Source of the DNA: an uncultured Candidatus Rokubacteria bacterium
GTDB taxonomy: Bacteria; Methylomirabilota; Methylomirabilia; Rokubacteriales; CSP1-6
DNA: 64,000 nt
Direction of reading: 5' to 3'
NCBI GenBank assembly: GCA_963789955.1
Contig: CAWBMV010000036.1
Span: forward strand, 32,001-96,000
This document shows positions 16,499-38,219 of this stretch, one piece after another (position 1 is the stretch's first letter; the number at the start of each line of letters is the position of its first letter). Position numbers and translations under genes: made by a program. Under the pieces are notes generated by a model. The model was not told where the DNA came from, ran no database searches, and saw only the letters and a list, made by a program, of their open reading frames with translations.

Positions 16499-17091
16499 AG
16501 CGACTCGTCGTCGGGATCACGGGCGCGACCGGATCGATCTACGGGATTCGTCTGCTCGAGATCCTGCGCGGGCAGGCCGACGTGCAGACGCACCTGGTGA
16601 TCTCGGCGCCGGGCAAGCGCACGATCGTCGAGGAGACGGCGTTCACGGTGAGAGACGTGGAAGCGCTCGCCGCGCACCACTACGACATCCGCGACATCGG
16701 CGCCTCGATCGCCTCGGGCTCCTTCAAGACGGCCGGGATGGTGATCGCGCCGTGCTCGATCAAGACCGCGGGAGCGATCGCCTCGTGTCACACGGATTCG
16801 CTGATCGCGCGCGCGGCCGACGTGACCCTGAAGGAAGGCCGGCCGCTCATCGTGCTCCTGCGCGAGACGCCGCTGCACATCGGACACCTCAAGTGCATGG
16901 TGGCGCTCGCCGAGATGGGCGCGGTGCTGCTGCCGCCGATGCCCGCGTTTTACAACCGACCCAAGGACCTCGACGACATCGTGAATCACACGGTCGCGCG
17001 CGTGCTCGACCGGCTCAATCTTCCGCAGACGCTCGTCGCTGAGTGGCAGGGCACGGCCCGGCGCGTGTCGGCGGGGGAGCCGGGTGACTGA
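16495..17091 (+). CDS. ubiX: Flavin prenyltransferase UbiX
   Basis: VGITGATG, IASGSF, APCS.KT, RAADV.LKE.R, RETPL, PPMPAFY. Confidence 0.95.
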   Translation: MKRLVVGITGATGSIYGIRLLEILRGQADVQTHLVISAPGKRTIVEETAFTVRDVEALAAHHYDIRDIGASIASGSFKTAGMVIAPCSIKTAGAIASCHTDSLIARAADVTLKEGRPLIVLLRETPLHIGHLKCMVALAEMGAVLLPPMPAFYNRPKDLDDIVNHTVARVLDRLNLPQTLVAEWQGTARRVSAGEPGD

Positions 17092-17821
17092 CCTCTCGGT
17101 CGTCATCCCCGTCTACAACGAAGAAGCCAGCCTGACCCCGCTCTGGTCCGAGCTGCGCGGGATCCTCGAGCAGCTCGAGCTCGCCTTCGAGGTCGTGTTC
17201 GTCGACGACGGCAGCCGCGACCGCAGCGCCGAGATCATCCGCTCGTTTCGCGAGACCGATCAGCGCGTGCGCCTGGTGCGGCTCAAGGCGAACGGCGGTG
17301 AGACGGCGGCGACCGATGCCGGATTCAAGGCGGCGCGCGGGCGGCGCGTCGTCGTGATGGACGCCGATCTCCAGAACGATCCTCGTGACATCCCGATGCT
17401 GCTCTCGCATCTCGACCACTGGGACGCGGTCACCGGCTGGCGGGTCAATCGCGCCGCCGGCGACAACGTCGTGCGGCGCGTCTCGTCGCGGATCGCGAAC
17501 CGGATCCGTAACTGGGTGTCCGACGAGACGATCCAGGATAGCGGCTGCACCTTCCGGGCGTTTCGGCGCGAGTGTCTTCGCGGGCTCGTCCTCTACCGCG
17601 GCTTCCACCGGTTCATCCCCACGCTCCTCAAGATGCGCGGCTACCGCGTGATCGAGGTGCCGGTCGGCCACCGGCCGCGTCAGTTCGGCCGGTCGAAGTA
17701 CGGTGTCCTGAATCGCGCGGTCGTCGCCTTCGCCGACCTCCTGGTGATCCGCTGGATGGGCGCCCGCCTCCTCCGCTACGAAATCGTCGAGGACGTGGGC
17801 GGTGACCTCATCCGCGACTGA
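17084..17821 (+). CDS. GT2 polyprenol-phosphate glycosyltransferase (DPM1/ArnC-like)
   Basis: SVVIPVYNE, VDDGS.D, MDADLQNDP, FHRFIP, HRPR..G.SKYG. Confidence 0.9.
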   Translation: MTDLSVVIPVYNEEASLTPLWSELRGILEQLELAFEVVFVDDGSRDRSAEIIRSFRETDQRVRLVRLKANGGETAATDAGFKAARGRRVVVMDADLQNDPRDIPMLLSHLDHWDAVTGWRVNRAAGDNVVRRVSSRIANRIRNWVSDETIQDSGCTFRAFRRECLRGLVLYRGFHRFIPTLLKMRGYRVIEVPVGHRPRQFGRSKYGVLNRAVVAFADLLVIRWMGARLLRYEIVEDVGGDLIRD

Positions 17822-17830
17822 GCGCGGCGC

Positions 17831-18807
17831 GTGAACGTCTTGCTGGTCGGCCTCGGCCGCTGGGGCGAAAAGCATCTGCGCGTGCTCGGCGAGCTCGGCG
17901 TCACGCTCTGGGTCGCCGACGTGTCGCCGGAGCGGCTCGCGTGGGCAGTGCGCCACGGCGTCGCGGCGCGCCGCGCCGTCGCCGACTATCGCACCGCGCT
18001 GAACGCGGTCGACGCGGTCGACATCGTCACCTCGGCGGAGAGCCACTGGGACGTCGCGCGCGCGAGCCTGGCCGCCGGCCGTCATTGCTTCGTCGAGAAG
18101 CCCCTGGCGCGAACGCTCGCGGAGGCGCGGCTGCTGGACGCGGCGGCCGTGTCGACCGGCCGCGTGGTTCAGGTCGGTCACATCTTTCGCTTCCACCCCG
18201 TGACGGCGACCTTGCGCGAGGCGCTCGGCGCCGGGCGCATCGGCGCCGTTCGCTACGCCACCGGTCGCTTCTCGGGATTCAAGCGGCCCCGTCTGGACGT
18301 CGGGGTCACCCAGACGGACGCGATCCACTACTTCGATCTCTTCGCGCTACCTCTTCGATCGGCAGGCGACCCGAGTCAGCGCGCTGCAGCGAGACTTCCT
18401 GGGCCGCGGTCTCGACGATCTGTCCGTGACCGTCGTGCACTACGGCGACGTGCCGGCCGTCGTCGAGGCGAGCTACTTCGCGCCCGGAACCTGGCGCGAG
18501 TGCGCGATCGTCGGGCGAGCGCGGCACGCTCGTGGCCGACTACGGAGCCTCGACCGTCACGCTCCACCTCGGCGAGCACACCAAGCACGGCAGCGCGTGG
18601 GAAGCCGTGGAGACCGGGAAGGAAGAGCTTCGGACGGGGCGCGAGGAGCCCCTTCGTCTCGAGCTCCAGGCCTTTCTCGAGGCGTGCGCCGGCCGTGCGG
18701 CCAACCCGGTTCCAGCGTCGGCTGGCGTGCGGGCGCTCGAGATCGTCGAGGCGGCCGCGCGGTCGGCTCGACTCGGTGCCGATGTCTCGCTCCCGCTCCC
18801 GTCTTGA
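17831..18807 (+). CDS. Gfo/Idh/MocA family oxidoreductase (frameshifts near 18350 and 18515)
   Basis: VGLGRWG, FVEKP, VGHIFRFHP, D.IHYFD, C-terminal EPLRLEL.AF. Confidence 0.85.
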
Positions 18808-18898
18808 CAGCCGCGTCGTCCACGCCGCACAGTCGCGTCGAATCGAATCCAGACGCAGCCGCGGGCACCAGCGCCGGCTGCTCCGAGGAGACAGCGCG

Positions 18899-21476: not shown

Positions 21477-21965
21477 ATGGCAAGTCAAGCCAGAGAGGTG
21501 TCGGGAGATCGTTCCATCGCGACCAACCGTCGCGCTCGGCACGAGTACGAGATCCTCGAGACGGTCGAGGCGGGCCTGGTACTACGCGGCACCGAGGTCA
21601 AGTCGCTCAGGGACGGTCTGGTCAACTTCAAGGACAGCTACGCGTCCGTCCGGAACGGGGAGGGCTGGCTCCTCGGCTGCCACATCAATCCTTATAGCCA
21701 CGGCACGGATGCCAACCACGACCCCGAACGGGACCGGAAGCTCCTCCTTCATAAGAAGGAGATCGCCCGGCTGAGCGGAAAGATCAGCGAAAAGGGCCTG
21801 ACTCTGGTCCCGCTTCGTCTCTACTTCAAAGGTGGCCGGGCCAAGGTCGAGCTCGGCCTGGCGCGGGGCAAGAAGCTTCACGACAAGCGAGCCACCCTGC
21901 GCGAGCGGGAGGTTCGCCGCGAGATGGACAAGGCCGCCCGTGGCGCTCGACGCGGCGCGTGGTAG
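21477..21965 (+). CDS. smpB: SsrA-binding protein SmpB
   Basis: NRRARHEY, EAGLVL.GTEVKSLR, RKLLLHKKEI, GKKLHDKR. Confidence 0.98.
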   Translation: MASQAREVSGDRSIATNRRARHEYEILETVEAGLVLRGTEVKSLRDGLVNFKDSYASVRNGEGWLLGCHINPYSHGTDANHDPERDRKLLLHKKEIARLSGKISEKGLTLVPLRLYFKGGRAKVELGLARGKKLHDKRATLREREVRREMDKAARGARRGAW

Positions 21966-21998
21966 TGGTATACTTGTTACAAATCGGGTACTTCAAGG

Positions 21999-22353
21999 GG
22001 GGGCGACAGGTTTCGACGGGGATCATTGACGTCCAGGCTGCGTCTCGAGGTTTCTCTCCCCTCGTTAATAAGAGAGAACGGTATAGCTGCCAACACACAG
22101 CTAGCTCTGGCGGCCTAACACCCGTCAGCGTCCGCCGGCTCGAGCCATCAGGGACCGGGAACGGACGTCATATTCTGGTGGCTGGCTCCGAACCTAGCCT
22201 CAGGGGAGGGGCGAGACTTTGAGGCTGGCCGCGCGGTGATCCGGCCGATTGGAGTGCCGCGTAGCGAGAAGCAGTAAAGTAGATCGGCTATCGACGTAGA
22301 CGCCTGCGGCTGAGGGTTTCCGGACGTGGGTTCGATTCCCACCGCCTCCACCA
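21999..22353 (+). ncRNA. ssrA: tmRNA; tag peptide (A)ANTQLALAA at 22089-22118
   Basis: 5' GGGGGCG pairs with CGCCTCC-ACCA 3' including G3.U; GGTTTCGAC and GTTCGATT motifs; tag ORF ends LAA-stop; follows smpB; TGGTATACT extended -10 upstream. Confidence 0.97.
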
Positions 22354-22377: not shown

Positions 22378-23064
22378 TTGATCGCGAACGACCGAGCTGC
22401 CGTACTGTTCGACTTCGGCGGGACTCTGGACGCCGACGGGCTTCCGTGGAAAGAGCGGGTGTATCGGCTGTTCCGCGACGAGGGAGCCGTCATGGCGCCC
22501 GACCGCTTCGATCCTGCCTTCTATGCGGCCGACGACGCGCTCGTCGGCACCCTGCCGGTGACGACCTCGTTCCGGGCGACCGTCGAGCGCCTGGCCGCGG
22601 GTGTCGCCGCGACGCTCGAGCTCCCCGATCCCGACATCGCGGCTCGCGTCGCGGGCCGATTCCTGAGCGATTCATTGCGGACGATCGACGGGAACACGCC
22701 GCTGCTGCGCGAGCTTAGCCGGCGCTACCGGCTCGGCATCGTCTCCAACTTCTACGGAAACCTGGCGCAGGTGTGCGAGGATGCCGGTATTCGTCAACTG
22801 TTTGGTGTGCTCGTCGATTCGGCGGAGGTTGGATGCACGAAGCCGGCCCCGCGAATCTTCCAGCACGCGCTCGACGCGCTCGGCGTCTCTGCGGCGAAGG
22901 CGACCTTCGTCGGCGATTCTCTGCCGCGAGACATGGCGGGCGCGCGCGGCGTCGGCATGCGCCACATCTGGCTCGTCGGCGCCGAGGCGTCCGCGGCGGC
23001 TCCGTGCTGCCGAGACGATCGACAGATTCGCTCGCTTCGCGAGCTGGAGGCGATTCTGCTGTGA
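22378..23064 (+). CDS. HAD-superfamily phosphatase
   Basis: LFDFGGTLD motif I, IVSNFYGN motif II, KP motif III, VGDS..RD motif IV. Confidence 0.9.
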   Translation: MIANDRAAVLFDFGGTLDADGLPWKERVYRLFRDEGAVMAPDRFDPAFYAADDALVGTLPVTTSFRATVERLAAGVAATLELPDPDIAARVAGRFLSDSLRTIDGNTPLLRELSRRYRLGIVSNFYGNLAQVCEDAGIRQLFGVLVDSAEVGCTKPAPRIFQHALDALGVSAAKATFVGDSLPRDMAGARGVGMRHIWLVGAEASAAAPCCRDDRQIRSLRELEAILL

Positions 23065-23765
23065 GCGCGTCGTTCGCGGGCGGCATCATCGCCGCGGGTG
23101 AAGGCAGCCGGCTGCGCCAGGGCGGGTTCGCGATGCCCAAGCCGATGGTGCCGATCGCCGGCGTGCCGCTGATCGAGTCGACCATTCGCAATCTTCGCGC
23201 CGCGCGCGTCGGGCCACTGGCGATCATCGTGAACGAGCAGGAGCGCGAGTGCGTCGAGTGGATCCGCGCGCGCTTCCCCGATCTCGACATCGACTTCATC
23301 GTCAAGACGACGCGCTCGTCGCTCGAGAGCTTCGGCGAGGTGATCCGCCGTCATCCCGGCGGCCGGATGCTCGTCTCGACCGTCGATGCGTGGTGCGTCG
23401 AGTCGGACTTCGTCCGGTTCGTCGAGGCCGCGGCTCGGCGGCCGCTCGACGCGACGGTCTTGGCCGTGACGCCGCTGGTCGCGGACGAGAAGCCGCTGCG
23501 CGTCGTCATGGCGGCGGACGGCCGGATCAAGGACGTCGGCGTCGACGCGGGTGATCTCGTCACCGCCGGCATGTACCTGGTGCCCGAAGCGGTGCGCACA
23601 CTCACGCCGCCGGCCGGGCTCGGACGGCTGCGCGACTTTCTGAAATGGCTGGCGCGCTCGGGCGCGCCGCTGTACGGCGAGATCATCGAGCAGGTCGTCG
23701 ACGTGGATCGGGCCGACGACGTGGCGCTGGCCGAGACGCTCGCCTTGGCGGGGCGGGTATCATAG
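23061..23765 (+). CDS. Nucleotidyltransferase (sugar/polyol-phosphate NTP transferase)
   Basis: GIIAAGEGSRL...PKPMV.IAG.PLIE; VSTVD; DVD..DD near the C-terminus. Confidence 0.88.
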   Translation: MSASFAGGIIAAGEGSRLRQGGFAMPKPMVPIAGVPLIESTIRNLRAARVGPLAIIVNEQERECVEWIRARFPDLDIDFIVKTTRSSLESFGEVIRRHPGGRMLVSTVDAWCVESDFVRFVEAAARRPLDATVLAVTPLVADEKPLRVVMAADGRIKDVGVDAGDLVTAGMYLVPEAVRTLTPPAGLGRLRDFLKWLARSGAPLYGEIIEQVVDVDRADDVALAETLALAGRVS

Positions 23766-23787
23766 ATCGATTGAGGAGGGCTCGAGA

Positions 23788-24624
23788 GTGAGCAGAGTCT
23801 GCTGGGGAATTTTTCGCGAGTCGACCCATTCGCCGGGCCGCGAGTCCGACGACACGGAAATTCTGAGGCTGACCGGCAAGCATCTGGAAGCGAAGGGCTT
23901 TCACGTCGAGCTCAAGACCGCGGACGAGGTGACCGAGGCCACGGAAACCGGGCCGCGCTTCGTCTTCCTCATGTGCGAGCGGGTCGAGGTGCTCGAGCGC
24001 CTGCGGGCACTCGAGGTGAGCGGCGTGCCCCACGTGAACACCCCCCGCGCCGTGCACAACACCTATCGTGACCGGATGATCGCCGTGCTCGACGAGGCGA
24101 ACGTGCCCTTCATCCCGAGCCGCATCGTCGCCACGAGCGAGACGCCGGAGGCGAGCCCGCAGCCGCTGTGGGTGAAGCGTGGCGACGTCCACAATACGCA
24201 GGAGGGCGACGTCGTTCGCGCGTCGACGGCCGCCGCAGTCGAGGCCGCGCTCCGCGGGCTCGCCCAGCGCGGGATCAAGCGCGCCGTGCTCCAGCCGCAC
24301 GTCGAGGGCGACCTGATCAAGTTCTACGGGATCGGCGCCGGCGGTGGGCCGCATCGCGAGCCGCCCTGGTTCCGTTGGTTCTATCACAAGGACCAGAAGC
24401 TCTCCGGCAACCCGCTCGACCAGCGTCAGCTTGCGCGGCTCGTCCGCCGCGCGGCCGCGGCACTCGGCCTCGAAGTGTACGGCGGCGACGCGATCGCGAC
24501 GCCGACCGGTGAGCTGGTGCTCCTGGACGTGAACGCGTGGCCGAGCTTCGCGCTCTATCGCGACGAGGCCTCCGCCGCGATCGCGTCGTATCTGGCGCTT
24601 CGATTCTCGGGAGGCAAGCGTTGA
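23788..24624 (+). CDS. ATP-grasp-fold protein of unknown function
   Basis: VN......N..R, LWVKRGD, LQPHVEGDLIKFYG, LGLEVYGGD, LDVNAWPSF. Confidence 0.7.
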   Translation: MSRVCWGIFRESTHSPGRESDDTEILRLTGKHLEAKGFHVELKTADEVTEATETGPRFVFLMCERVEVLERLRALEVSGVPHVNTPRAVHNTYRDRMIAVLDEANVPFIPSRIVATSETPEASPQPLWVKRGDVHNTQEGDVVRASTAAAVEAALRGLAQRGIKRAVLQPHVEGDLIKFYGIGAGGGPHREPPWFRWFYHKDQKLSGNPLDQRQLARLVRRAAAALGLEVYGGDAIATPTGELVLLDVNAWPSFALYRDEASAAIASYLALRFSGGKR

Positions 24625-25950
24625 CCGAACGGCGTGAGGTCGGACCGCGGTCGCAGAAGATCGTCACTCAGGAACGTAAGCACCTGGCATCGGGCTCCCA
24701 GGGCTTTTCGCTCTACGCGGGCCTCGCGATGGCGCGCGGTGTCGACTGCACCTTGATCGACGAGGACGGCAACGAGTACATCGACTTCATCGCCGGCATC
24801 GCGGTCGGGAGCATCGGTCACTGCCATCCGCACTACGTCGAGGCGCTCAAGCGTCAAGTCGAGCAGATCACCTTCGGCAGCTTCACCACCGAGATACGGG
24901 CCAAGTTCCTCGACCTGCTCGGTTCGGTCACGCCCGAGGGGCTCACGCGCATCCAGATGTTCTCCGGCGGCGCCGAGGCGGTCGAGGCCGCGCTGCGGCT
25001 TGCGCACGCCGCAACCGGCAAGAGCGAGGTGCTCGGGTTCTGGGGCGGCTTCCACGGCAAGACCGGCGGCGTGTTGCCGCTGCTCGGCAGCGAGTTCAAG
25101 CACCACCTCGGGCCATTCATGCCGGGGCGTTATTCCTCGCCGTACGCGGACTGCTATCGCTGCCCCCTCAAGCTCCGGTACCCGGACTGCGGGATCGCTT
25201 GCGCGGAGTTCGCGCGCGACGTCATTCGCTACCAGACCGCCGGCGAGATCGGCGCGATCATCGTCGAGCCGATGCAGGGCACGGCGGGCAACATCATCCC
25301 GCCGGAGGGATTTCTGCGCGCGGTCGCCGGGATCGCTCGCGAGCACGGCGCACTGTTCATCGCGGACGAGATGATCACCGGCTTCGGACGAACCGGGGCG
25401 ATGTGGGGCGCGGAGCACGACGGTGTCGTGCCCGACATCATGACCGTCGGGAAAGGCGTCGGCGGCGGTTATCCGCTCTCGTGCGTGATCTCGACCGACA
25501 AGATCACGTCGTCGAAGCCCTGGTCCAATCCGAGCGCCAGCTCGTCGAGCTATGGCGGCAGCCCGCTCGCGTCGGCCGCCGGCCTCGCCGCGCTCGAGAT
25601 CATCTTGAAGGAAGATCTAGTCAAGAACGCCGAGCGCGTGGGCAAGGTCATGCTCGGACGGCTCGAGGAGCTGAAGGAGAAGTACCGGTGTGTCGGCGAG
25701 GTGCGCGGGCGCGGTCTGATGCTCGGCATCGAGCTCGTGAGCGACCGGGCGACCAAGCAGCCGCTGCTCGAAGACGGCCACGCAGGCGCTCTACCAGGAA
25801 TGCCTTCGCCGTGGTCTCGTCGCGATGACCTACGCGCCGTCGGTTCGCCTCAACCCGCCGCTCACGATCAAAGAGGACGCGGCGCTGGCGGGACTCGCGA
25901 TCCTGGACGAGGCGCTCGAGGTGGTCGTCAGAGATCACGGGCTTCGATAG
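24621..25950 (+). CDS. Class III PLP-dependent aminotransferase, frameshift near 25770
   Basis: D.DGNEYIDF, SGGAEAVE, FHGKT, IVEPMQG, ADEMITGFGRTG, PDIMTVGKG (PLP Lys), VRGRGLM. Confidence 0.92.
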
Positions 25951-25951
25951 G

Positions 25952-26983
25952 ATGCAGCGCGGCGCGATCATCGGCCTGGGCAACGTCGCCCTGCACGGCC
26001 ACCTGCCAGGCTGGCGACGTCGTCGCGACGTGCAGATCGTCGCGGTCACCGACGCGCGGCCCGAGCAGCACGCGCTCGTCTCGGCTCATGCTCCCGGCGC
26101 GCGCTGGTACACGACCTCCGCGGAGCTCCTGGCCGAGGCGTCCGTCGATTTCGTGGACATCTGCACGCCGCCGAGCAGTCACGCCACGCTGATCCGCGGA
26201 GCGCTCGAGCGCGGCCGGCACGTGCTCTGCGAGAAACCGCTGGTCAGCGCCCCCGACGATCTGGGGCCGCTGGCCCGTCTGGTGGAGCGGACCGGCCGCG
26301 TCCTCTATACGGTCCACAACTGGCACCACGCGCCCATCGTGCGCCGCACGGCGGAGCTGATCCGGGAAGGCCGCATCGGCCGGGTCAAGCACGTGATCTG
26401 GCACACCCTGCGCACCCGGCCCGCGCTGGCCGGCGACGAGCGCAGCGGGAACTGGCGCGTCGATCCGGCCGTCGCGGGTGGGGGCGTGCTCTCCGATCAT
26501 GGATGGCATGTGTTCTACGTCATCCAGCGCTGGATCGGCGAGCCGCCGCTGTCGGTGAGCGCCCGGCTGGAGCGGCGGCGACACGTCACGTGGGACGTCG
26601 AGGACACCGCGACGGTGCGCGTGACCTATGCCGGCGCCACCGCCGAGATCCTGTTGACGTGGGCGTCGGACGTCAGGCGGAACTGGGCCGAGGTCGGCGG
26701 AACCGCCGGAACGCTCGAGCTGCACGACGACACGCTCGTGCTCAAGAGCGGCGACCCCGGCGTAGATGCCTCGTGGCCGTGCCCGCCGCCGATGTCGGAC
26801 GGCTCGCATCACCCGGACTGGTTCGATGCGGTGGCGAGCCAGTTCCTCGCGGAGACGACGGGGGCGGTGCCGCGCGGCGCGAATCTGGCCGAAGCGCGGC
26901 TCTGCGTCGCGCTCGAGCATGCGGCGCGTGAATCGAGCCGGCAGGGCGGCCGCGAGATTGCGATCGCGGGAGTCCCGGTCTGA
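25952..26983 (+). CDS. Gfo/Idh/MocA family NAD(P) dehydrogenase
   Basis: IIGLGNVA, ICTPP..H, LCEKP, GGGVLSDHGWH, VEDTA. Confidence 0.9.
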   Translation: MQRGAIIGLGNVALHGHLPGWRRRRDVQIVAVTDARPEQHALVSAHAPGARWYTTSAELLAEASVDFVDICTPPSSHATLIRGALERGRHVLCEKPLVSAPDDLGPLARLVERTGRVLYTVHNWHHAPIVRRTAELIREGRIGRVKHVIWHTLRTRPALAGDERSGNWRVDPAVAGGGVLSDHGWHVFYVIQRWIGEPPLSVSARLERRRHVTWDVEDTATVRVTYAGATAEILLTWASDVRRNWAEVGGTAGTLELHDDTLVLKSGDPGVDASWPCPPPMSDGSHHPDWFDAVASQFLAETTGAVPRGANLAEARLCVALEHAARESSRQGGREIAIAGVPV

Positions 26984-27003
26984 CGACCGCGGTCTCGGTC
27001 TCC

Positions 27004-28164
27004 GTGCAGGCGGAGGACAGTCTGCTGGTGGTCGTGCCGCCCGAGCCTGGGACCGCGACCAGCGTGACGCCCGACACCGTGGTCGCGGGGCTTCCGCTGC
27101 TGCGCCGCATCGTCCTGGCCGGCTCGCGCGCGGGGTTCTCGCGTGTGCTGGTGCAGAGCGGTCACGACGACGCCGAGCGACTGCTCGCCGGCACGACGGC
27201 GCGCGTGCTGAGCGGCGCGCCGCCGCCCGACTCGCGCCGCCGGATCGTCATCCTCCCGGCCAACGTCGTGCCCCAGGCCAAATGGCTCCGGGCGCTCCGC
27301 GAGGCCGAAGTCGAGCCCGAGCGCGTCTACGCCGACGGACAGCTCGCCGCGATCATCGACACCGACGACCCGGCGTTCGTGCTCGCGGCCGCGACGCAAT
27401 GCCGAGACATCGGCGAGCTCATGGCGACGTTGCGCGTCCGGTTCGACGAGGCCAAGCTCGAGGTCGACGAGACCGGGCGCTTCCCGCTCTCCGAAGCGGC
27501 CGACACCCGGCCGGCCGAGACGTGGCTCCTGCGAAGCCTGATCAAGCAGCGCGAGGGCTTCATGTCGCGCCACTTCGAGCGGAAGATCTCGCTGGCGATC
27601 ACGCGCCGGCTCGCGTTGACTCGCGTCACGCCCGACATGATGACCGTCGTGAGCGTGGGGATCGGGCTGCTCGGCGCGCCGTTCTTCCTGTCGGAGTCTC
27701 CCGTCTACCAGCTCGTCGGGGCCCTCCTGTTCCTGACGCACTCGATCCTCGACGGCTGCGACGGCGAGCTCGCCCGGCTCAAGTTCATGGAGTCGCCGCA
27801 CGGCGCGATCCTCGACTTCTGGGGCGACAACGTCGTCCACGTCGGCGTCTTCTCCTGCATGGCGGTCGGTCTGAGCTTCGCGCAGGACGCCACCTGGCCG
27901 CTGGCGCTGGGCGCGCTCACGGTCATCGCGACCCTCGGCGCGGCCGCCTGCCAGTCACGCGACATCATGCTGGACACGGCGGTCGGCGGCGACGCCAGTT
28001 GGATCGCGCGCTTCGCCGAGGCGTTTTCTTCGCGAGACTTCATCTATCTGGTCATCGCCATGTCCGCGTTCGGCAAGGCCCACTGGTTTCTGATCCTCGC
28101 GTCGATCGGCACGCCGATTTTCTTCGGTCTCCTTCTCTGGGTCGGGGCGCGGCGGCGCGCCTGA
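27004..28164 (+). CDS. CDP-alcohol phosphotransferase with N-terminal degenerate nucleotidyltransferase-like domain
   Basis: TPD.MT, DGCDGELARLKFMESPHGAILDFWGD = DxxDGxxAR-x8-GxxxDxxxD; N-terminal VAGLPLLRRIVLA..RAG. Confidence 0.9.
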   Translation: MQAEDSLLVVVPPEPGTATSVTPDTVVAGLPLLRRIVLAGSRAGFSRVLVQSGHDDAERLLAGTTARVLSGAPPPDSRRRIVILPANVVPQAKWLRALREAEVEPERVYADGQLAAIIDTDDPAFVLAAATQCRDIGELMATLRVRFDEAKLEVDETGRFPLSEAADTRPAETWLLRSLIKQREGFMSRHFERKISLAITRRLALTRVTPDMMTVVSVGIGLLGAPFFLSESPVYQLVGALLFLTHSILDGCDGELARLKFMESPHGAILDFWGDNVVHVGVFSCMAVGLSFAQDATWPLALGALTVIATLGAAACQSRDIMLDTAVGGDASWIARFAEAFSSRDFIYLVIAMSAFGKAHWFLILASIGTPIFFGLLLWVGARRRA

Positions 28165-28170
28165 GTCGCG

Positions 28171-29745
28171 GTGGCCGGGTTCGTCGACGTTCTGCTCCGA
28201 GGGCTTGCCCTGTGCGGCCAGGCGGTCGCCATCGGCGGCGTGCTCTTTGCTCTGCTCTTGCTGCGTCCGACCCTCGGCGAGGGCGGTGCTGCGCGCGCGC
28301 GGCTTGTGCGCAGCCTCTGGCTGACAGCGCTTGGGGCCGCGGTCGTCGCCGTCGCCCAGGGCCTCTCGCTGGGGGTCCAGCTCTCCGTCCTCGGCGATAC
28401 CGCGGGCGGATGGCCCATCGCCGAGGTCGCTCGGACGAGCTTCTTTCGTGCGGGCATCGTCCGCATTCTGGCCTGCGTCGGGCTCGTGCTCGGATGTGCG
28501 GCTCTGGTCAAGCGTCCCGAGCCACGTCTCTGGTGGATCGCGCTCGCCGGGCTGACGGTGCTCCTCGGCGCTGGCAGCGCGTGGACGAGCCACGCCGCCG
28601 GCCGTCTCGGGCCCCGCGCCGTGCTCCTGATCCTCGACGCGCTGCACCAGCTCGCGGCCGGCGTGTGGATCGGCGGGCTGCTCCATCTGACGATCGCCGC
28701 GTTCTCACGCGCGGAGAGCGGGTGGTCGGGGAGTTTGCTCAAGCGCTTCTCGACGATGGCCTTCATCTCGGTCGTGATTCTGGTCCTCGCGGGTGTGGGA
28801 CTCACGTTCTCCTACGTCGACAGCCCGGGCGCGCTCCTCGGCACCTCCTACGGCAGCATGATTCTCACGAAGGTCGCGATCCTCGGCGGAGTCTTGCTCC
28901 TGGGCGCGGCCAACTTCTTCGCCGTGCGACGTTTGCCCGACTCCGCCAACGTCTCGGTGGCGCGGCTGCGGCGCTTCGTCGAAGTCGAGTTCGGCCTGGG
29001 TGCGACGGTGCTGTTCGTCGCTGCGTCGCTGACGTCGTTGCCGCCCGCGGGTGACGTCGTCGCCGACCGCGCCTCGCTCGCCGAAGTCGGCGTCCGGTTC
29101 GCGCCGCGCTGGCCCGCGCTCACGTCGCCGAAGATCGCGGATATGCCGGTGGACGACCGCAACGCGCCGCGGACCGACGCCGACCGGGCATGGTCGGAGT
29201 TCAATCACCACTGGGCGGGGCTCTTCGTGCTCGCCATGGGCCTGCTGGCTCTCGTGCACGCGACGGGACGCGCGCGATGGGCGCGACACTGGCCGCTCGT
29301 GTTCCTCGGCCTCGCGGGCTTCCTGCTCGTTCGCAACGATCCGGGCGCGTGGCCGCTCGGGCCGCTCGGATTCTGGGAGAGCATGCGCTATCCCGAGGTG
29401 TTGCAGCATCGCATCTTCGTCCTGCTGGTCGTCGCCTTCGGCATCTTCGAGTGGCTGGTCCGCACCGACCGCGTCCGCGTCCACGGAGCCGCGCTCGTTT
29501 TCCCGCTGCTCTGCGCCGTCGGCGGCGGGCTGCTCCTCACGCACTCGCATGCGGGCTTGAATCTGAAGCAGGAGTACCTGATCGAGATCACGCACGTCCC
29601 CCTGGGCGTGCTGGCGATGATCACGGGGTGGTCGCGCTGGCTCGAGCTGCGCCTGCCGGCGCCGTCCGGCCGGCTTGCCGGGCGCATCTGGCCGGTCGCG
29701 TTCACGTTGGTCGGCGTGTCCCTCATCCTCTACCGGGAAAGCTGA
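28171..29745 (+). CDS. CopD-family polytopic membrane protein with His-rich C-terminal TM domain
   Basis: TSHA, LHQLAAGVWIGGL, RFS, TSYG..L.K, VEVE motifs; C-terminal WSEFNHH, QHR, HSH, THVP. Confidence 0.72.
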   Translation: MAGFVDVLLRGLALCGQAVAIGGVLFALLLLRPTLGEGGAARARLVRSLWLTALGAAVVAVAQGLSLGVQLSVLGDTAGGWPIAEVARTSFFRAGIVRILACVGLVLGCAALVKRPEPRLWWIALAGLTVLLGAGSAWTSHAAGRLGPRAVLLILDALHQLAAGVWIGGLLHLTIAAFSRAESGWSGSLLKRFSTMAFISVVILVLAGVGLTFSYVDSPGALLGTSYGSMILTKVAILGGVLLLGAANFFAVRRLPDSANVSVARLRRFVEVEFGLGATVLFVAASLTSLPPAGDVVADRASLAEVGVRFAPRWPALTSPKIADMPVDDRNAPRTDADRAWSEFNHHWAGLFVLAMGLLALVHATGRARWARHWPLVFLGLAGFLLVRNDPGAWPLGPLGFWESMRYPEVLQHRIFVLLVVAFGIFEWLVRTDRVRVHGAALVFPLLCAVGGGLLLTHSHAGLNLKQEYLIEITHVPLGVLAMITGWSRWLELRLPAPSGRLAGRIWPVAFTLVGVSLILYRES

Positions 29746-29747
29746 TC

Positions 29748-30719
29748 CTGCGCTACGTTCGCGTCGCGCTCCTCGTGCTCGGCGTGGCGCTGCTCGCCGC
29801 GCTCGTCGCGCAGAACGATCCGGCGGTGGTCCTCGCGTCGATCGCCGATCTGCACTGGCGGCTCGCCGTCATCCTGTGCTTTCCCGCCGTGCTCGTCGCG
29901 CTGTTCGACACGCTCGGCTGGCGCTATGCCTTCATGCGCGAGATCGTTCCGTTCCGCGCGCTCGTCGCGTCCCGGCTCGCCGGCGAGGCGTTCAACATGA
30001 CGACGCCGACCGCCGCGGTGGGCGGGGAGGCGGTCAAGGCCTGGCTGCTCCGCGGGTACGCGCCGCTCGACGCGACGCTCGCGTCGGTGATCGTCGCCAA
30101 GACAACGATTACGCTGGGTCAGGGGCTGTTCTTCCTGCTGGGGGTCCTGGTCGCGTGGGAGACGGGCCTGGCCGGGTCGACGTTGCTCTACGGCATGCTG
30201 TGGTTCCTGGTCATCGAGGCGATCGTCCTGGGGCTGTTCGTTCTGGTCCAGATGCGCGGCATGCTCGGCTGGACGGGGCGGCTGCTCGAGCGGCTGGGGA
30301 TTCGCCCGGCGAAGGTTCAGGCGATGTTCGGCCGCGTCGACGACTCGCTCGGACAGTTCTACCGGACCGCGCCGGGCCGGCTCGGTCTCTCGATCGGGTT
30401 TCACGCCATCGCCTGGGCCCTGGGCGCGGTCGAGACGTGGCTCATCCTGAAATTCCTCGGCAGCGAGGTCTCGCTGGCAACCGCCACCGTGATCGAGGCG
30501 TTCGGCACGGGCATCAAGGTGGCGACCTTCCTGGTGCCGGCAAGCCTCGGCGTGCTCGAGGGCGGCTTCGTGGCCACGGCCGCGACGTTCGGGCTCTCCG
30601 CCACCACGGCGATCTCCTTCAGCCTGGTGCGGCGCCTTCGCGAGGCCACGTGGGTCGCGATCGGCCTGGTCGCGTTCGCCGCGATGCGTCCCCGGGAGCC
30701 CAGAACCACCTCGGACTAG
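29748..30719 (+). CDS. Flippase-like membrane protein (lysylphosphatidylglycerol synthase TM / UPF0104 family), start approximate
   Basis: GWR, GEAFN.TTP...GGE.VK, PASLGVLEGG, SLVRRLRE. Confidence 0.8.
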   Translation: MRYVRVALLVLGVALLAALVAQNDPAVVLASIADLHWRLAVILCFPAVLVALFDTLGWRYAFMREIVPFRALVASRLAGEAFNMTTPTAAVGGEAVKAWLLRGYAPLDATLASVIVAKTTITLGQGLFFLLGVLVAWETGLAGSTLLYGMLWFLVIEAIVLGLFVLVQMRGMLGWTGRLLERLGIRPAKVQAMFGRVDDSLGQFYRTAPGRLGLSIGFHAIAWALGAVETWLILKFLGSEVSLATATVIEAFGTGIKVATFLVPASLGVLEGGFVATAATFGLSATTAISFSLVRRLREATWVAIGLVAFAAMRPREPRTTSD

Positions 30720-36342: not shown

Positions 36343-37134
36343 ATGCTCCACTTCACGATCGACGGGTTTCGGGGATTCCGCTCTCGCTTCGACGACGCTC
36401 ACCTGATCCAGGAAGTACTCGAGGACGCACCGGCGCAGCTCGGACTCAAGCGCGCGATGCCGGCCTTCGTGCTGCCGTACTACAACGGGGTCGTGCCCGA
36501 GGATTGTGGGATCAGCGCGTTCGTGTTCCTGGCGGGCGGCCACTTCACGCTCCACACCTTCTCGTTCCGTGAGACGTACTTCGCCGATCTGGTGGCGCCG
36601 GACGAGTTCGACCCGGCCAAGCTCCGGGCGCTACTCGAGGCGGTCTTTCCGTGCGCGCTCACCAGTGTCCGGACCGTAGAACGGCAGGACCTGAAGGACT
36701 CCGAGCCAGACGTCGAGAACGACTTCGGGCCCCATCTGTTCCTGAACATCGATGCGTACCAGGGTCCGCAAGATCTCGATTCCCTGTTCCAGCTCTTCGA
36801 TCGGCTCCCGGCCGAGATCGGCATGACGCCGATCATGCGGCCCTACGTCATCCGCGACACCACCTCGGACGGGCAGCCCGTCTTGAGCGCGATGACGATG
36901 ATCGCGGAGAGCCACGTGACCCTTCACGTCTTCCCCCGCGAGGAACGTGCGTACTTCGACATCTTCTCGTGCCGGTTCTTCGACCGGTCGTTCGTGGTGC
37001 CCCGGCTCCTCGCCCAGTTCCCCGGCGGGAGCGTCCAGGAGGCCCTCGTCGCTCGGGGCAGCCGTTACCGCTATCTGCGGACCGAGCGCGCCGACGAACA
37101 CGCCAAGTCGCGCACCTGGCTTCCTCAGCGATAG
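36343..37134 (+). CDS. Tandem two-domain S-adenosylmethionine-decarboxylase-fold (SpeD-like) proenzyme
   Basis: Domain 2 has GPHLFLNI, IAESHVTLHVFP, DIFSC; domain 1 is homologous (LHFTIDG, GISAF.FLAGGHFTLHTF) but lacks the ESH serine. Confidence 0.8.
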   Translation: MLHFTIDGFRGFRSRFDDAHLIQEVLEDAPAQLGLKRAMPAFVLPYYNGVVPEDCGISAFVFLAGGHFTLHTFSFRETYFADLVAPDEFDPAKLRALLEAVFPCALTSVRTVERQDLKDSEPDVENDFGPHLFLNIDAYQGPQDLDSLFQLFDRLPAEIGMTPIMRPYVIRDTTSDGQPVLSAMTMIAESHVTLHVFPREERAYFDIFSCRFFDRSFVVPRLLAQFPGGSVQEALVARGSRYRYLRTERADEHAKSRTWLPQR

Positions 37135-37142
37135 GAGCGAAC

Positions 37143-38219
37143 ATGACTCGCGAGCCGCGATTCGACGACCCGAACCTCGTCCGCGAACCCATGACCGTGG
37201 CGGAAGACACCGGACGGGGTAGCGTCCTGTCCCTGCTCGGCCGGATGGGGAAGTCCGCCTTCCAGGGCCGGAAGCTCGGCGAGGCCTTCGAGGCCTGGAA
37301 GACCATGATCGAGGGCGACAGCCTCATCTGCCTGGGCTATGCCGCATCGATGTCGAGCGCCGGGATGTGGCCGCTCATCACGTGGCTGGTCCAGCGCGGC
37401 TACATCGACGTCCTCGCGTCGACCTCGGCCAACATCTCCGAGGACCTGCTCGACATGATGGACGGCACGCGTGTCTACCGTGTCGACCCCGAGCACGTCG
37501 ACGACGTGGCGCTGGCCGACAAGGGCTACTACCGGTTCTACGACCACATCGTCTCGTCCAAGAAGTACGACCAGATGGAAACGGTCGTCACCGGCCGGTT
37601 CTTCGATGAGCTCGCCGACACCTGGCGGAAGCCCACGATCCCGACGGTCCGGCTGCTGTTCGAGCTGGGGAACTGGCTCAACGCCAAGGGCTTCGAGAAG
37701 TCGATCCTCGCGACGGCGGCGCGCAACCAGGTGCCCGTCTTCTGCTGCGGCTTGCCGGACGGCCCGATCGGCGAGGGCTACAGCACCTCGCCCAAGGCCG
37801 AGCAGGCGCCCGTCGTCGACTTCTTCAAGGACTACCGGATCGCCACGGACATCATGGACAACGCCATGATGTCGAAGCGGGGAACCTCGGTCGTCTTCCT
37901 GGGCGGTGGGGTGCCGAAAGATTTCCTGCAGATCACCGCGACCAGCGTGCGGACCCGCCACGGCAACGTGGATCCCACCCCGCACAAGGCCTCGATCCAG
38001 ATCACGACCGACAATACGGTCTACGGCGGCCTCGGCGGCGCCACCCTCGCGACCGAGTGCATCTCCTGGGGCAAGGAGGCGCACGGGAACGCGAACGTCA
38101 TGTGCTTCGCCGACATCACGATCGCGCTGCCGATCATCTGTCAGGGTCTCGCCGAGCACTTCGGGCGCGGCCACCGGCGCGAGCAGCCCAAGCCGCTGAA
38201 GCTGGCCGAAGTCTTCTAG
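37143..38219 (+). CDS. Deoxyhypusine-synthase-family protein (possible homospermidine synthase)
   Basis: FQGRKLGEA, STSANI.ED, LGGGVPKDF, GGLGGAT..ECISWGK (catalytic Lys), ADITIALP. Confidence 0.88.
   Translation: MTREPRFDDPNLVREPMTVAEDTGRGSVLSLLGRMGKSAFQGRKLGEAFEAWKTMIEGDSLICLGYAASMSSAGMWPLITWLVQRGYIDVLASTSANISEDLLDMMDGTRVYRVDPEHVDDVALADKGYYRFYDHIVSSKKYDQMETVVTGRFFDELADTWRKPTIPTVRLLFELGNWLNAKGFEKSILATAARNQVPVFCCGLPDGPIGEGYSTSPKAEQAPVVDFFKDYRIATDIMDNAMMSKRGTSVVFLGGGVPKDFLQITATSVRTRHGNVDPTPHKASIQITTDNTVYGGLGGATLATECISWGKEAHGNANVMCFADITIALPIICQGLAEHFGRGHRREQPKPLKLAEVF

Follow-up and report, generated by a model that had tools for sequence, protein, structure and literature searches.

What does an operon make that joins a nucleotidyltransferase and a CDP-alcohol phosphotransferase with an aminotransferase, a dehydrogenase and two membrane proteins? 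The question is raised by eight genes of a soil bacterium in the 64-kb window (the whole stretch of DNA analysed), for which a sequence-only reading had proposed an amino-cyclitol phospholipid head group as the product.

Organization and conservation of the operon

The eight genes are co-oriented and closely packed (Table 1), with spacings that range from 4-base overlaps to 22-base gaps; from 5' to 3', the successive junctions are an overlap of 4, a gap of 22, an overlap of 4 and gaps of 1, 20, 6 and 2 bases. Coordinates, strand and spacing were confirmed as originally read, and so were the family names: seven of the eight genes match a named Pfam family above cut-off, and the ATP-grasp protein is assigned by its predicted fold. 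The identical eight-gene order recurs in 11 of 15 loci fetched from the same family, so that the grouping exceeds chance; the eight genes are a real operon. Its last gene lacks an ATG and apparently starts with CTG, all seven aligned relatives having CTG or TTG at this position. The tmRNA gene ends 24 bases upstream of the operon. Among the best 80 of 597 related loci, smpB is found upstream in four; tmRNA and amidase genes adjoin the operon in close relatives only.

Table 1. Genes of the operon and the adjoining tmRNA gene, with positions in the window
Feature	Coordinates	Strand	Basis
HAD-IA hydrolase	22378..23064	+	PF00702
NTP transferase	23061..23765	+	PF12804/PF00483
ATP-grasp protein, unnamed family	23788..24624	+	Alignment, structure model, fold searches, PDB profile matches
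Class III PLP aminotransferase	24621..25950	+	PF00202
Gfo/Idh/MocA NAD(P) dehydrogenase	25952..26983	+	PF01408/PF22725
CDP-alcohol phosphotransferase (CDP-AP), AF2299/DIPPS type	27004..28164	+	PF01066
CopD-domain membrane protein	28171..29745	+	PF05425
LPG-synthase-TM / HpnL-like flippase-family protein	29748..30719	+	PF03706
tmRNA (ssrA), context, outside pathway	21999..22353	+	ARAGORN; downstream of smpB

Two collections were compared: the 80 best-scoring of 597 related loci, which are weighted towards relatives and non-independent, and a sample of 151 genomes of the phylum. The operon is conserved across many bacterial phyla: in about ten of them (assigned by record title), the clustering is kept despite a shuffled gene order. 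In the phylum sample, the aminotransferase occurs in 75 and the ATP-grasp protein in 76 of the 151 genomes, 74 having both, and the two are jointly present or jointly absent in 148. Had the aminotransferase and the dehydrogenase been found apart from the core genes in related genomes, the amino-cyclitol reading was to be given up; their synteny with the core holds across phyla. A grouping of unrelated genes by chance or mere inheritance is very improbable. The CopD-like gene (13 of the best 80 loci) does resemble a passenger, and the restricted distribution of the tmRNA and amidase neighbours is of the same kind, but the clustering retained in spite of shuffling, the joint presence and absence, and fusions between cluster genes all oppose chance, which synteny and fusions largely refute.

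Predicted activation and transfer enzymes

The HAD gene is present in 68 of the best 80 loci. Its product has the conserved motif I DFGGTLD, without the usual second Asp, is the best match in this genome for both HADs of the Bacteroidales clusters compared, and is likely an inositol-phosphate phosphatase; the missing second catalytic Asp counts against the pathway proposed below. The NTP transferase (70 of the best 80 loci) carries the motifs AAGEGSRL...PK, DEKPL and DVDRADD. It is the sole match in this genome to the Bacteroidales NTP transferase, with which it has 30-32% identity over the full length (about 230 aa) and the DEKP motif in common, and is likely a cytidylyltransferase. It matched IPCT (2XME) with E 7e-6 and sugar-phosphate thymidylyltransferases with E 4e-12; that the enzyme is no closer to the former than to the latter is a further point against the pathway.

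The best PDB match of the CDP-AP is AF2299 (4O6M, E 7e-22), followed by IPCT/DIPPS (4MND), both ahead of PIP synthases. The signature DxxDGxxAR...GxxxDxxxD is present, DGCDGELARLKFMESPHGAILDFWGD aligning with AF2299 and 4MND, and the N-terminal domain is a degenerate nucleotidyltransferase-like one (best match the AF2299 N-domain, E 0.008). With the Bacteroidales enzyme, the motif region alone aligns (30-32% over 71-104 residues), and a CDP-AP paralog on contig C1 scores similarly for one Bacteroidales query. DIPPS is a solute synthase, and its place beside AF2299 as closest solved relative likewise counts against the pathway below. An NTP transferase, DIPPS and a phosphatase constitute the logic of the DIP pathway.

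Another possible product is a water-soluble compatible solute of the phosphodiester type, namely an amino analogue of either di-myo-inositol phosphate or glycerophospho-inositol; the HAD would then take off the final phosphate, as happens in the DIP pathway. The ranking of AF2299 and IPCT/DIPPS ahead of PIP synthases and the DIP-type enzyme set (cited in PMC9246714) would suit such a solute, which is nevertheless quite unlikely in view of the flippase-family gene in 52 of the best 80 loci, the Mla, hopanoid and sphingolipid-type neighbours, and the inositol lipids of Bacteroidales species that bear the core (PMC9246714).

The ATP-grasp protein: kinase or ligase

The ATP-grasp protein has no Pfam match above cut-off; its structure model (pLDDT 95.4) has the ATP-grasp fold. 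It is a core enzyme, also found where no aminotransferase occurs (8 of the best 80 loci and 3/3 annotated Bacteroidales records), and in 8/8 long homologs checked it is fused to NTP transferase, HAD or CDP-AP. We predict from its metal motif, D247-x-N249-x-x-P252, that it is an ITPK-like cyclitol kinase: D247 and N249 are invariant in 97 of 97 aligned sequences, and D-x-N-x-x-P aligns with DLNYLPSF of AtITPK4 and DINAFPGY of human ITPK1, whereas RimK and PsnB carry E-x-N. The fold match to ITPK1 has an rmsd of 3.1 over 249 residues. In the fold search, ArgX (Z 22.3) and the ArgX/RimK group (Z 21.5-22.3) rank above PPIP5K2 (Z 18.6) and ITPK1 (Z 18.5), and the best PDB profile match is the ligase PsnB; both observations count against the pathway below.

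The same head-group chemistry might instead employ a ligase of the RimK type, attaching an amino acid or another acyl group (as an amide on inosamine or an ester on inositol), in which case amination may take place on phosphorylated or CDP-bound inositol. LPG-synthase-TM domains flip aminoacylated lipids, which counts for a ligase, as do ArgX, RimK and LysX at the head of the structural matches, RimK as the commonest weak Pfam match among 97 family members (14, vs 10 for the ITPK family, PF05770), and the weak NCBIfam matches, MptN and RimK. The invariant Asp where the aligned ligases have Glu, the retention of the gene in aminotransferase-free clusters, and the plain PI-DHC reported as the lipid of the Bacteroidales species (PMC9246714) make this unlikely, and the kinase is the assignment used here.

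The predicted amination module

The aminotransferase, a class III enzyme like Hyg8 of hygromycin A biosynthesis, carries the motifs QGTAGN and PSxSSSSYGGNP, is 48-92% identical across phyla and is encoded immediately after the ATP-grasp gene in 71 of the best 80 loci. The dehydrogenase occurs in 65 of the best 80, never without the aminotransferase; in the six loci with the aminotransferase but no dehydrogenase, the sequence stops within about 250 bases of the former. The two genes are an optional paired module. In the window, the aminotransferase gene contains a single surplus base near 25766, very likely an assembly error, because it is missing from near-identical contigs in most runs compared (3/4 DNA and 3/4 RNA runs) and 15/15 relatives' loci keep the junction in frame.

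GABA and ornithine had been named as substrates that would speak for another function; both enzymes score below cut-off against every GABA, ornithine or IolG model listed. Among the 25 best matches listed, both the 383-aa part of the aminotransferase in the window and the intact 453-aa ortholog of the closed genome G047 stay below the cut-offs of the GABA, (acetyl)ornithine and putrescine aminotransferase models. The dehydrogenase scores 63 vs the 355 bits required for IolG (TIGR04380), with no inositol dehydrogenase among its top PDB matches; this distance from IolG, too, counts against the pathway below.

Alternatively, the substrate of the pair may not be inositol but a sugar phosphate (compare kanosamine synthesis) or the lipid acceptor, or the two enzymes may serve as an epimerase, racemase or lyase; an ordinary or isomeric inositol phosphate would then be the head group. 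Among solved structures, those closest to the aminotransferase include GABA transaminases, amino-acid racemases and a phospho-lyase, and Gfo/Idh/MocA enzymes accept many sugars (PMC10949010). In the loci seen, however, the pair always lies right after the core ATP-grasp gene and near MIPS, the listed GABA and ornithine models are all far below cut-off, and hopanoid-type, sphingolipid-type and shc-lacking genomes alike have the pair, which argues for action on the shared head group; a different role is quite improbable.

Probable inositol supply

The sequence-only reading had taken the lack of an inositol-1-phosphate synthase (MIPS) in the operon to point away from inositol. MIPS is indeed absent from the entire window, and hence from the vicinity of the cluster here, but the argument built on this absence does not hold: this genome encodes MIPS on contig C12 beside shc, within an shc-hpnH-hpnN cluster, MIPS is present in 37 of the best 80 loci (in 34 together with the aminotransferase, a hygromycin-type set at the level of gene content), and in 12/12 aminotransferase-bearing Bacteroidota genomes it lies at most about 6 kb from the cluster. 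In G047, it belongs to the same gene run. Within the phylum sample, MIPS is found in 73/75 aminotransferase-positive vs 44/76 aminotransferase-negative genomes; since, within this family, it is present in 89 of the 93 genomes, operon-carrying or not, co-occurrence at that level is weakly informative. Because of its presence in those 37 loci and in the hopanoid cluster of this genome, the polyol substrate is very likely inositol.

Membrane proteins and lipid context

The CopD-like gene, listed among the eight genes in the sequence-only reading, falls outside the core. Its identity is also backed by Atlas CopD clusters, two paralogs are encoded elsewhere in the genome, and it is probably a lineage-restricted passenger. 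The last gene's best NCBIfam match is HpnL (TIGR03476), below cut-off (165 vs 195.65 bits); an ortholog at locus L100, located between hpnA and an hpnM-like gene, exceeds it, and another paralog in this genome adjoins hpnI/hpnJ.

The cluster has hopanoid genes for neighbours in four phyla and sphingolipid-type ones in another; hpnA, hpnL, hpnN, dxs and ispH are among the neighbours. In 13 of 76 phylum genomes, shc lies on the contig of the ATP-grasp gene, at most 14 kb away. It is conceivable, though doubtful, that CDP-inosamine, made via a bacterial ITPK-type cyclitol kinase, is transferred to bacteriohopanepolyol, giving a phosphodiester-linked amino-inositol hopanoid flipped by an HpnL-type protein. 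The operon would then be a portable head-group module, hopanoid-coupled in Methylomirabilota, Acidobacteriota, Desulfobacterota-type and Pseudolabrys loci and ceramide-coupled in Verrucomicrobiota. The proximity of shc, the hpn/dxs/ispH neighbours and MIPS inside the shc-hpnH-hpnN cluster favour a hopanoid; against it stand the near-universality of shc in the phylum (144/151 genomes) and the carriers in which shc was not found, 7 of 20 genomes checked, for which completeness is not given, including 5/5 with Ignavibacteria or Bacteroidota titles.

Proposed pathway

The genes, folds, synteny, module structure and MIPS linkage are observed; we infer what the enzymes act on, the order in which they do so, the acceptor and the final product. 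On balance, it is somewhat probable that the operon's enzymes synthesise an amino-inositol phosphate in CDP-activated form, for transfer to a membrane-lipid alcohol. Inositol 1-phosphate from the MIPS encoded elsewhere in the genome would be dephosphorylated by the HAD, and one hydroxyl oxidised by the Gfo/Idh/MocA enzyme to an inosose, whose ketone would be aminated by the class III aminotransferase to an inosamine, following the logic proposed for Hyg18/25/17/8. The ATP-grasp protein, as an ITPK-like kinase, would re-phosphorylate the inosamine, the NTP transferase would form CDP-inosamine, and the AF2299/DIPPS-type enzyme would join it to a lipid alcohol; candidate acceptors are diacylglycerol or an ether lipid, ceramide in some lineages and possibly hopanepolyol here. 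The phospho-inosamine lipid may then be moved across the membrane by the HpnL-like protein. Of the earlier amino-cyclitol lipid interpretation, the synteny of the pair with the core and the likeness of the core to the Bacteroidales cluster have stood, whereas the argument from MIPS absence and CopD as a core member have not.

No description of an amino-inositol phospholipid head group was found in the literature searched. The predicted zwitterionic lipid would belong to uncultured bacteria abundant in soil and groundwater (about half of the 151 phylum-sample genomes) and, with a head group about 1 Da lighter than phosphoinositol, offer a specific lipidomics target and possible biomarker. If the ATP-grasp enzyme is a kinase, ITPK-like chemistry reaches bacteria; should a hopanoid prove to be the acceptor, this would define a new hopanoid class and give HpnL-family proteins a role open to testing for the first time.

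Comparison with known systems

ITPK1/PPIP5K-type kinases, known from eukaryotes and Lokiarchaeota (PMC8024741), have the ATP-grasp fold and D-x-N metal motif in common with the operon protein, but act on inositol phosphates, and the fold of the operon protein ranks nearer RimK/ArgX. In the hygromycin A branch, Hyg17 (PF01408) oxidises myo-inositol, and Hyg18 (MIPS), Hyg25 (phosphatase), Hyg17 and its proposed partner, the aminotransferase Hyg8, are proposed to yield an inosamine (PMC10949010); as an antibiotic pathway without CDP activation or lipid transfer, it resembles the operon at the level of the gene set. IPCT/DIPPS and AF2299 of Archaeoglobus fulgidus (4MND, 4O6M) have the four-Asp CDP-AP signature, a nucleotidyltransferase-like N-domain and the CDP-polyol logic of the operon. 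The operon's CDP-AP differs in an N-domain whose consensus lacks the GxGxR loop and in its score below the NF041135 cut-off (73 vs 580 bits); the NTP transferase is separate, and the ATP-grasp protein, amination pair and flippase are additional.

The closest counterpart is the putative, functionally unconfirmed alternative inositol-lipid cluster described for Bacteroides (Phocaeicola) vulgatus and Prevotella by Heaver et al. 2022 (PMC9246714), in which two species assigned this cluster make inositol-phosphoceramide. Its gene order is MIPS-NTP-'hypothetical'-CDP-AP-LPG-HAD in B. finegoldii and NTP-'hypothetical'-CDP-AP-HAD-MIPS in P. nigrescens. The Bacteroidales NTP transferase, ATP-grasp and HAD proteins all match this operon first in the genome, and the unannotated ORF is identified by sequence similarity as the same ATP-grasp protein; the main text of PMC9246714 contains neither 'grasp' nor 'aminotransferase'. 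This adds a sixth gene to the alternative pathway of gut Bacteroidales and, with the ATP-grasp step, a possible reason for a phosphatase plus an ATP-dependent enzyme in one pathway. The core likeness claimed originally extends to five matching genes (HAD, NTP transferase, ATP-grasp, CDP-AP and flippase-like LPG-synthase-TM), besides the MIPS that is linked in Bacteroidales but not here; the CDP-AP appears to be of another, AF2299-like subtype, and the aminotransferase and dehydrogenase (and CopD) are extra.

Organization and integrity of the operon

The eight co-oriented, closely packed genes described from the sequence alone are borne out: neighbouring genes overlap by up to 4 bases or lie up to 22 bases apart, seven of the genes match the named families in Pfam, and the third, a 278-aa protein without a Pfam match, yields a confident ATP-grasp model when predicted from a 97-sequence alignment (pLDDT 95.4; 38.8 for the single-sequence prediction). 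The closest named homologs carry the labels Rokubacteria or Methylomirabilota. One extra base near 25766 interrupts the reading frame of the aminotransferase. Since this base is missing from near-identical contigs of three of four DNA runs and three of four RNA runs, and 15/15 relatives' loci read in frame across the junction, a real pseudogene was rejected (extra base absent in 6/8 runs compared) and the gene was treated as intact. The apparently split ORFs of the second Gfo/Idh/MocA gene, shc and hpnN are probably likewise indel errors of the assembly. The LPG-synthase-TM (LPG-TM) gene lacks an ATG at 29745-29750 and apparently begins with CTG; CTG (in one case TTG) lies 1-2 bases after the CopD stop in the window and in 7/7 relatives aligned, so that the gene apparently has a conserved non-canonical start.

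Coordinates of the features discussed and occurrence at related loci (best 80 of at least 597)
Feature	Location	Strand	Loci
Operon, eight genes	22378-30719	+
HAD phosphatase		+	68/80
NTP transferase		+	70/80
Class III aminotransferase	24621-25950	+	71/80
Gfo/Idh/MocA dehydrogenase	25952-26983	+	65/80
CDP-alcohol phosphotransferase (CDP-AP)	27004-28164	+	60/80 (window-type match); 14 (Bacteroidales-type)
CopD-like		+	13/80
LPG-TM (HpnL-like)	29748-30719	+	52/80
Inositol-1-phosphate synthase (MIPS)			37/80
smpB, then directly tmRNA (tag ANTQLALAA)	21477-22353
GT2 glycosyltransferase, then second Gfo/Idh/MocA gene, apparently frameshifted	17084-18830
ORFs taken by us, by eye, to be S-adenosylmethionine-decarboxylase-like, then deoxyhypusine-synthase-like	36343-38219
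Hopanoid cluster of the source genome: hpnH, shc, mlaEFDC, MIPS, hpnN	L030:5459-15846 (contig C12)
HpnL-like gene, hpnJ, hpnI with ATP sulfurylase/APS kinase and sulfotransferase, source genome	L138:178-6826 (contig C18)

The tmRNA ends 24 bases upstream of the operon, and a promoter/terminator scan, otherwise uninformative, found no terminator-like site between them; read-through from ssrA is possible. A recent island inserted at ssrA was rejected, as the GC content (0.67-0.72) matches the rest of the window and smpB occupies the same position in 8/15 relatives' loci. Among the RNA runs listed, the stretch is present in contigs of 6/10; those of four runs span 26-30 of 30 bins, although contigs without a silent control are no measure of transcription.

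A conserved core with an optional amination module

The full gene order is kept in 11/15 fetched loci of the same family. When GTDB was scanned with the ATP-grasp alignment, at least 597 of 600 stretches were confirmed as loci, and the best 80, a set biased towards relatives, were kept; by record title these come from Methylomirabilota, Nitrospirota, Acidobacteriota, Verrucomicrobiota, Chloroflexota, Pseudomonadota, Deltaproteobacteria, Myxococcales, Ignavibacteria/Bacteroidota and Elusimicrobiota. Synteny of the aminotransferase and dehydrogenase with the other genes, on which the sequence-only reading depended, holds: wherever one of these 80 has the aminotransferase, it comes directly after the ATP-grasp gene, and the dehydrogenase never occurs without the aminotransferase. 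The six aminotransferase-only loci break off just after the aminotransferase gene; both amination genes are truly absent from eight of the 80, a ninth being a cut locus. In a 151-genome sample of the phylum, the aminotransferase was found in 75, the ATP-grasp gene in 76 and both in 74 genomes, and of 301 Bacteroidota genomes 12 carry the aminotransferase, all 12 with an adjoining ATP-grasp gene. The ATP-grasp domain is fused to the NTP transferase, to HAD plus NTP transferase or to CDP-AP in 8/8 long homologs checked. These locus counts, co-occurrences and fusions divide the gene set into three parts: a core made up of HAD, NTP transferase, ATP-grasp and CDP-AP, mostly accompanied by LPG-TM and MIPS; the aminotransferase and dehydrogenase as an optional module for amination; and CopD, probably a passenger, which was rejected as a core member given its count among the best 80 loci and two further paralogs in the genome. 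A chance grouping of the genes is hardly credible.

Eight Acidobacteriota loci (L076, L078, L079, L083, L086, L090, L099, L102) hold two divergent cassettes each; the amination pair is present in the first and absent from the second, LPG-HAD-ATP-grasp(-CDP-AP), which suggests aminated and plain products in the same cell. Tandem ATP-grasp copies occur in two Bacteroidota genomes. In four of the best 80 loci (L051, L054, L055, L062), the neighbour of MIPS or of the operon is a HalD-like (PF23169) oxygenase/halogenase gene, possibly for an additional tailoring step. A plasmid search with the aminotransferase returned, among the best 25 of 270 matches, only relatives of at most 40% identity, the top one without annotation.

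Enzyme assignments

CDP-AP has all four Asp of the signature; its closest match is AF2299, followed by IPCT/DIPPS. Its N-domain lacks the nucleotide loop; as profile comparison with the NTP transferase gave little (a 32-column match, probability 6.7%), the claim of a degenerate domain rests on a weak AF2299 match. From its partner CDP-AP, we infer that the NTP transferase uses CTP. The HAD protein has DFGGTLD in place of DxD.

For the ATP-grasp protein, overall fold and profile place ligases ahead of ITPK (Z 22.3 vs 18.5), and the ESM Atlas gave nothing beyond unnamed clusters and a 14% RimK lead. Yet D247-x-N249-x-x-P252 is invariant in the family, and its D-x-N aligns with ITPK4 and ITPK1, whereas RimK and PsnB have Glu in place of D247. 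The gene is moreover retained without an amine-forming partner, and a phosphatase ahead of a nucleotidyltransferase demands re-phosphorylation; a kinase is therefore the favoured prediction, and a ligase appears unlikely.

Members of the aminotransferase family are close to one another (48-92% identity) and share the motifs QGTAGN and PSxSSSSYGGNP. GABA and ornithine had been named at the outset as unrelated substrates that would speak against an inosamine; the enzyme exceeds the cut-off of none of the listed GABA or ornithine models. The dehydrogenase falls below the IolG cut-off. That the pair acts on another substrate, or serves as an isomerase, is distinctly improbable.

Inositol as the probable polyol

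The sequence-only reading noted the lack of MIPS in the operon. The gene is indeed absent there, but this does not tell against inositol: the source genome encodes MIPS elsewhere, clustered with shc, hpnH, hpnN and mla genes. In the closed genome G047, MIPS ends the same gene run as the operon, facing hpnN. In the 151-genome sample, MIPS occurs in 73/75 aminotransferase-positive vs 44/76 negative genomes. Since it is near-universal in the window's family (89/93 genomes), more weight falls on adjacency in other lineages: MIPS lies within about 6 kb in 12/12 aminotransferase-bearing Bacteroidota genomes. Many relatives without the operon likewise have MIPS on one contig with shc.

The proposed lipid acceptor

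The neighbours of the cassette vary by lineage. Among the best 80 loci, dxs occurs in 17, ispH in 16, an hpnN-like MMPL gene in 9 and an HpnA-like gene in 7, and Mla genes occur too; Verrucomicrobiota-type loci instead have an SPT/Kbl-family enzyme (7; under all cut-offs), a sphingolipid-desaturase-like protein (7), a GNAT protein (6) and a fatty-acid hydroxylase (5). In L107, L109, L110, L112, L117, L121 and L123, the cassette lies amid SPT/Kbl-family, desaturase, hydroxylase, GNAT and SDR genes; the record title of L107, Bifidobacterium, fits a sphingolipid-type locus poorly. As at least 13/76 phylum genomes have shc no more than 14 kb from the ATP-grasp gene, and as shc was not found in 7/20 carrier genomes from other groups, a hopanoid acceptor is possible and an obligatory one was rejected; for this lineage we consider it rather doubtful. 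The sulfation genes beside HpnL-like, hpnJ and hpnI genes on contig C18 hint at a sulfated hopanoid.

Proposed pathway and known systems

These genes could act in the following manner: HAD would convert inositol 1-phosphate to inositol, which the dehydrogenase would oxidize to inosose and the aminotransferase convert to inosamine. The ATP-grasp protein may then form inosamine phosphate and the NTP transferase CDP-inosamine, which CDP-AP would join to a lipid alcohol as a phosphodiester; the HpnL-like protein may translocate the product. For the pathway as a whole, an amino-inositol phosphate that is CDP-activated and joined to a lipid alcohol, the balance tips slightly in favour; a soluble osmolyte as the product is quite improbable.

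In the literature searched, which excludes most subscription journals, we found neither a lipid with an inosamine head group nor this set of genes described. Among the matches listed on ITPK or ATP-grasp proteins in bacteria, no paper treats the operon's family, to judge by title; one paper on Methylomirabilis and intact polar lipids gave no bacterial head-group data in the passages available, and a passage on bacteriohopanepolyol and phosphoinositol was not relevant. Aminopentanetetrol phospholipids, as far as the available text goes, are known and have a different head group.

In B. finegoldii, P. distasonis and P. nigrescens, the annotated genes run NTP-hypothetical-CDP-AP-(LPG)-HAD, with MIPS in 2/3 records. 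The hypothetical protein is a member of the operon's ATP-grasp family, and the NTP transferase, ATP-grasp and HAD proteins each find this operon as first match in the source genome. This gene set is, by the portions of PMC9246714 available, its putative alternative inositol-lipid cluster, whose gene functions are there called unconfirmed; for B. vulgatus and P. veroralis, the inositol-phosphoceramide lipid PI-DHC is reported. The main text mentions neither an ATP-grasp protein nor an aminotransferase. The first half of the pathway suggested here resembles the branch put forward for hygromycin A; there, according to the part of PMC10949010 available, Hyg17 is a verified myo-inositol dehydrogenase. 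Overall, the operon is real and widespread, an uncharacterised variant with amination of a pathway that is known yet itself unproven.
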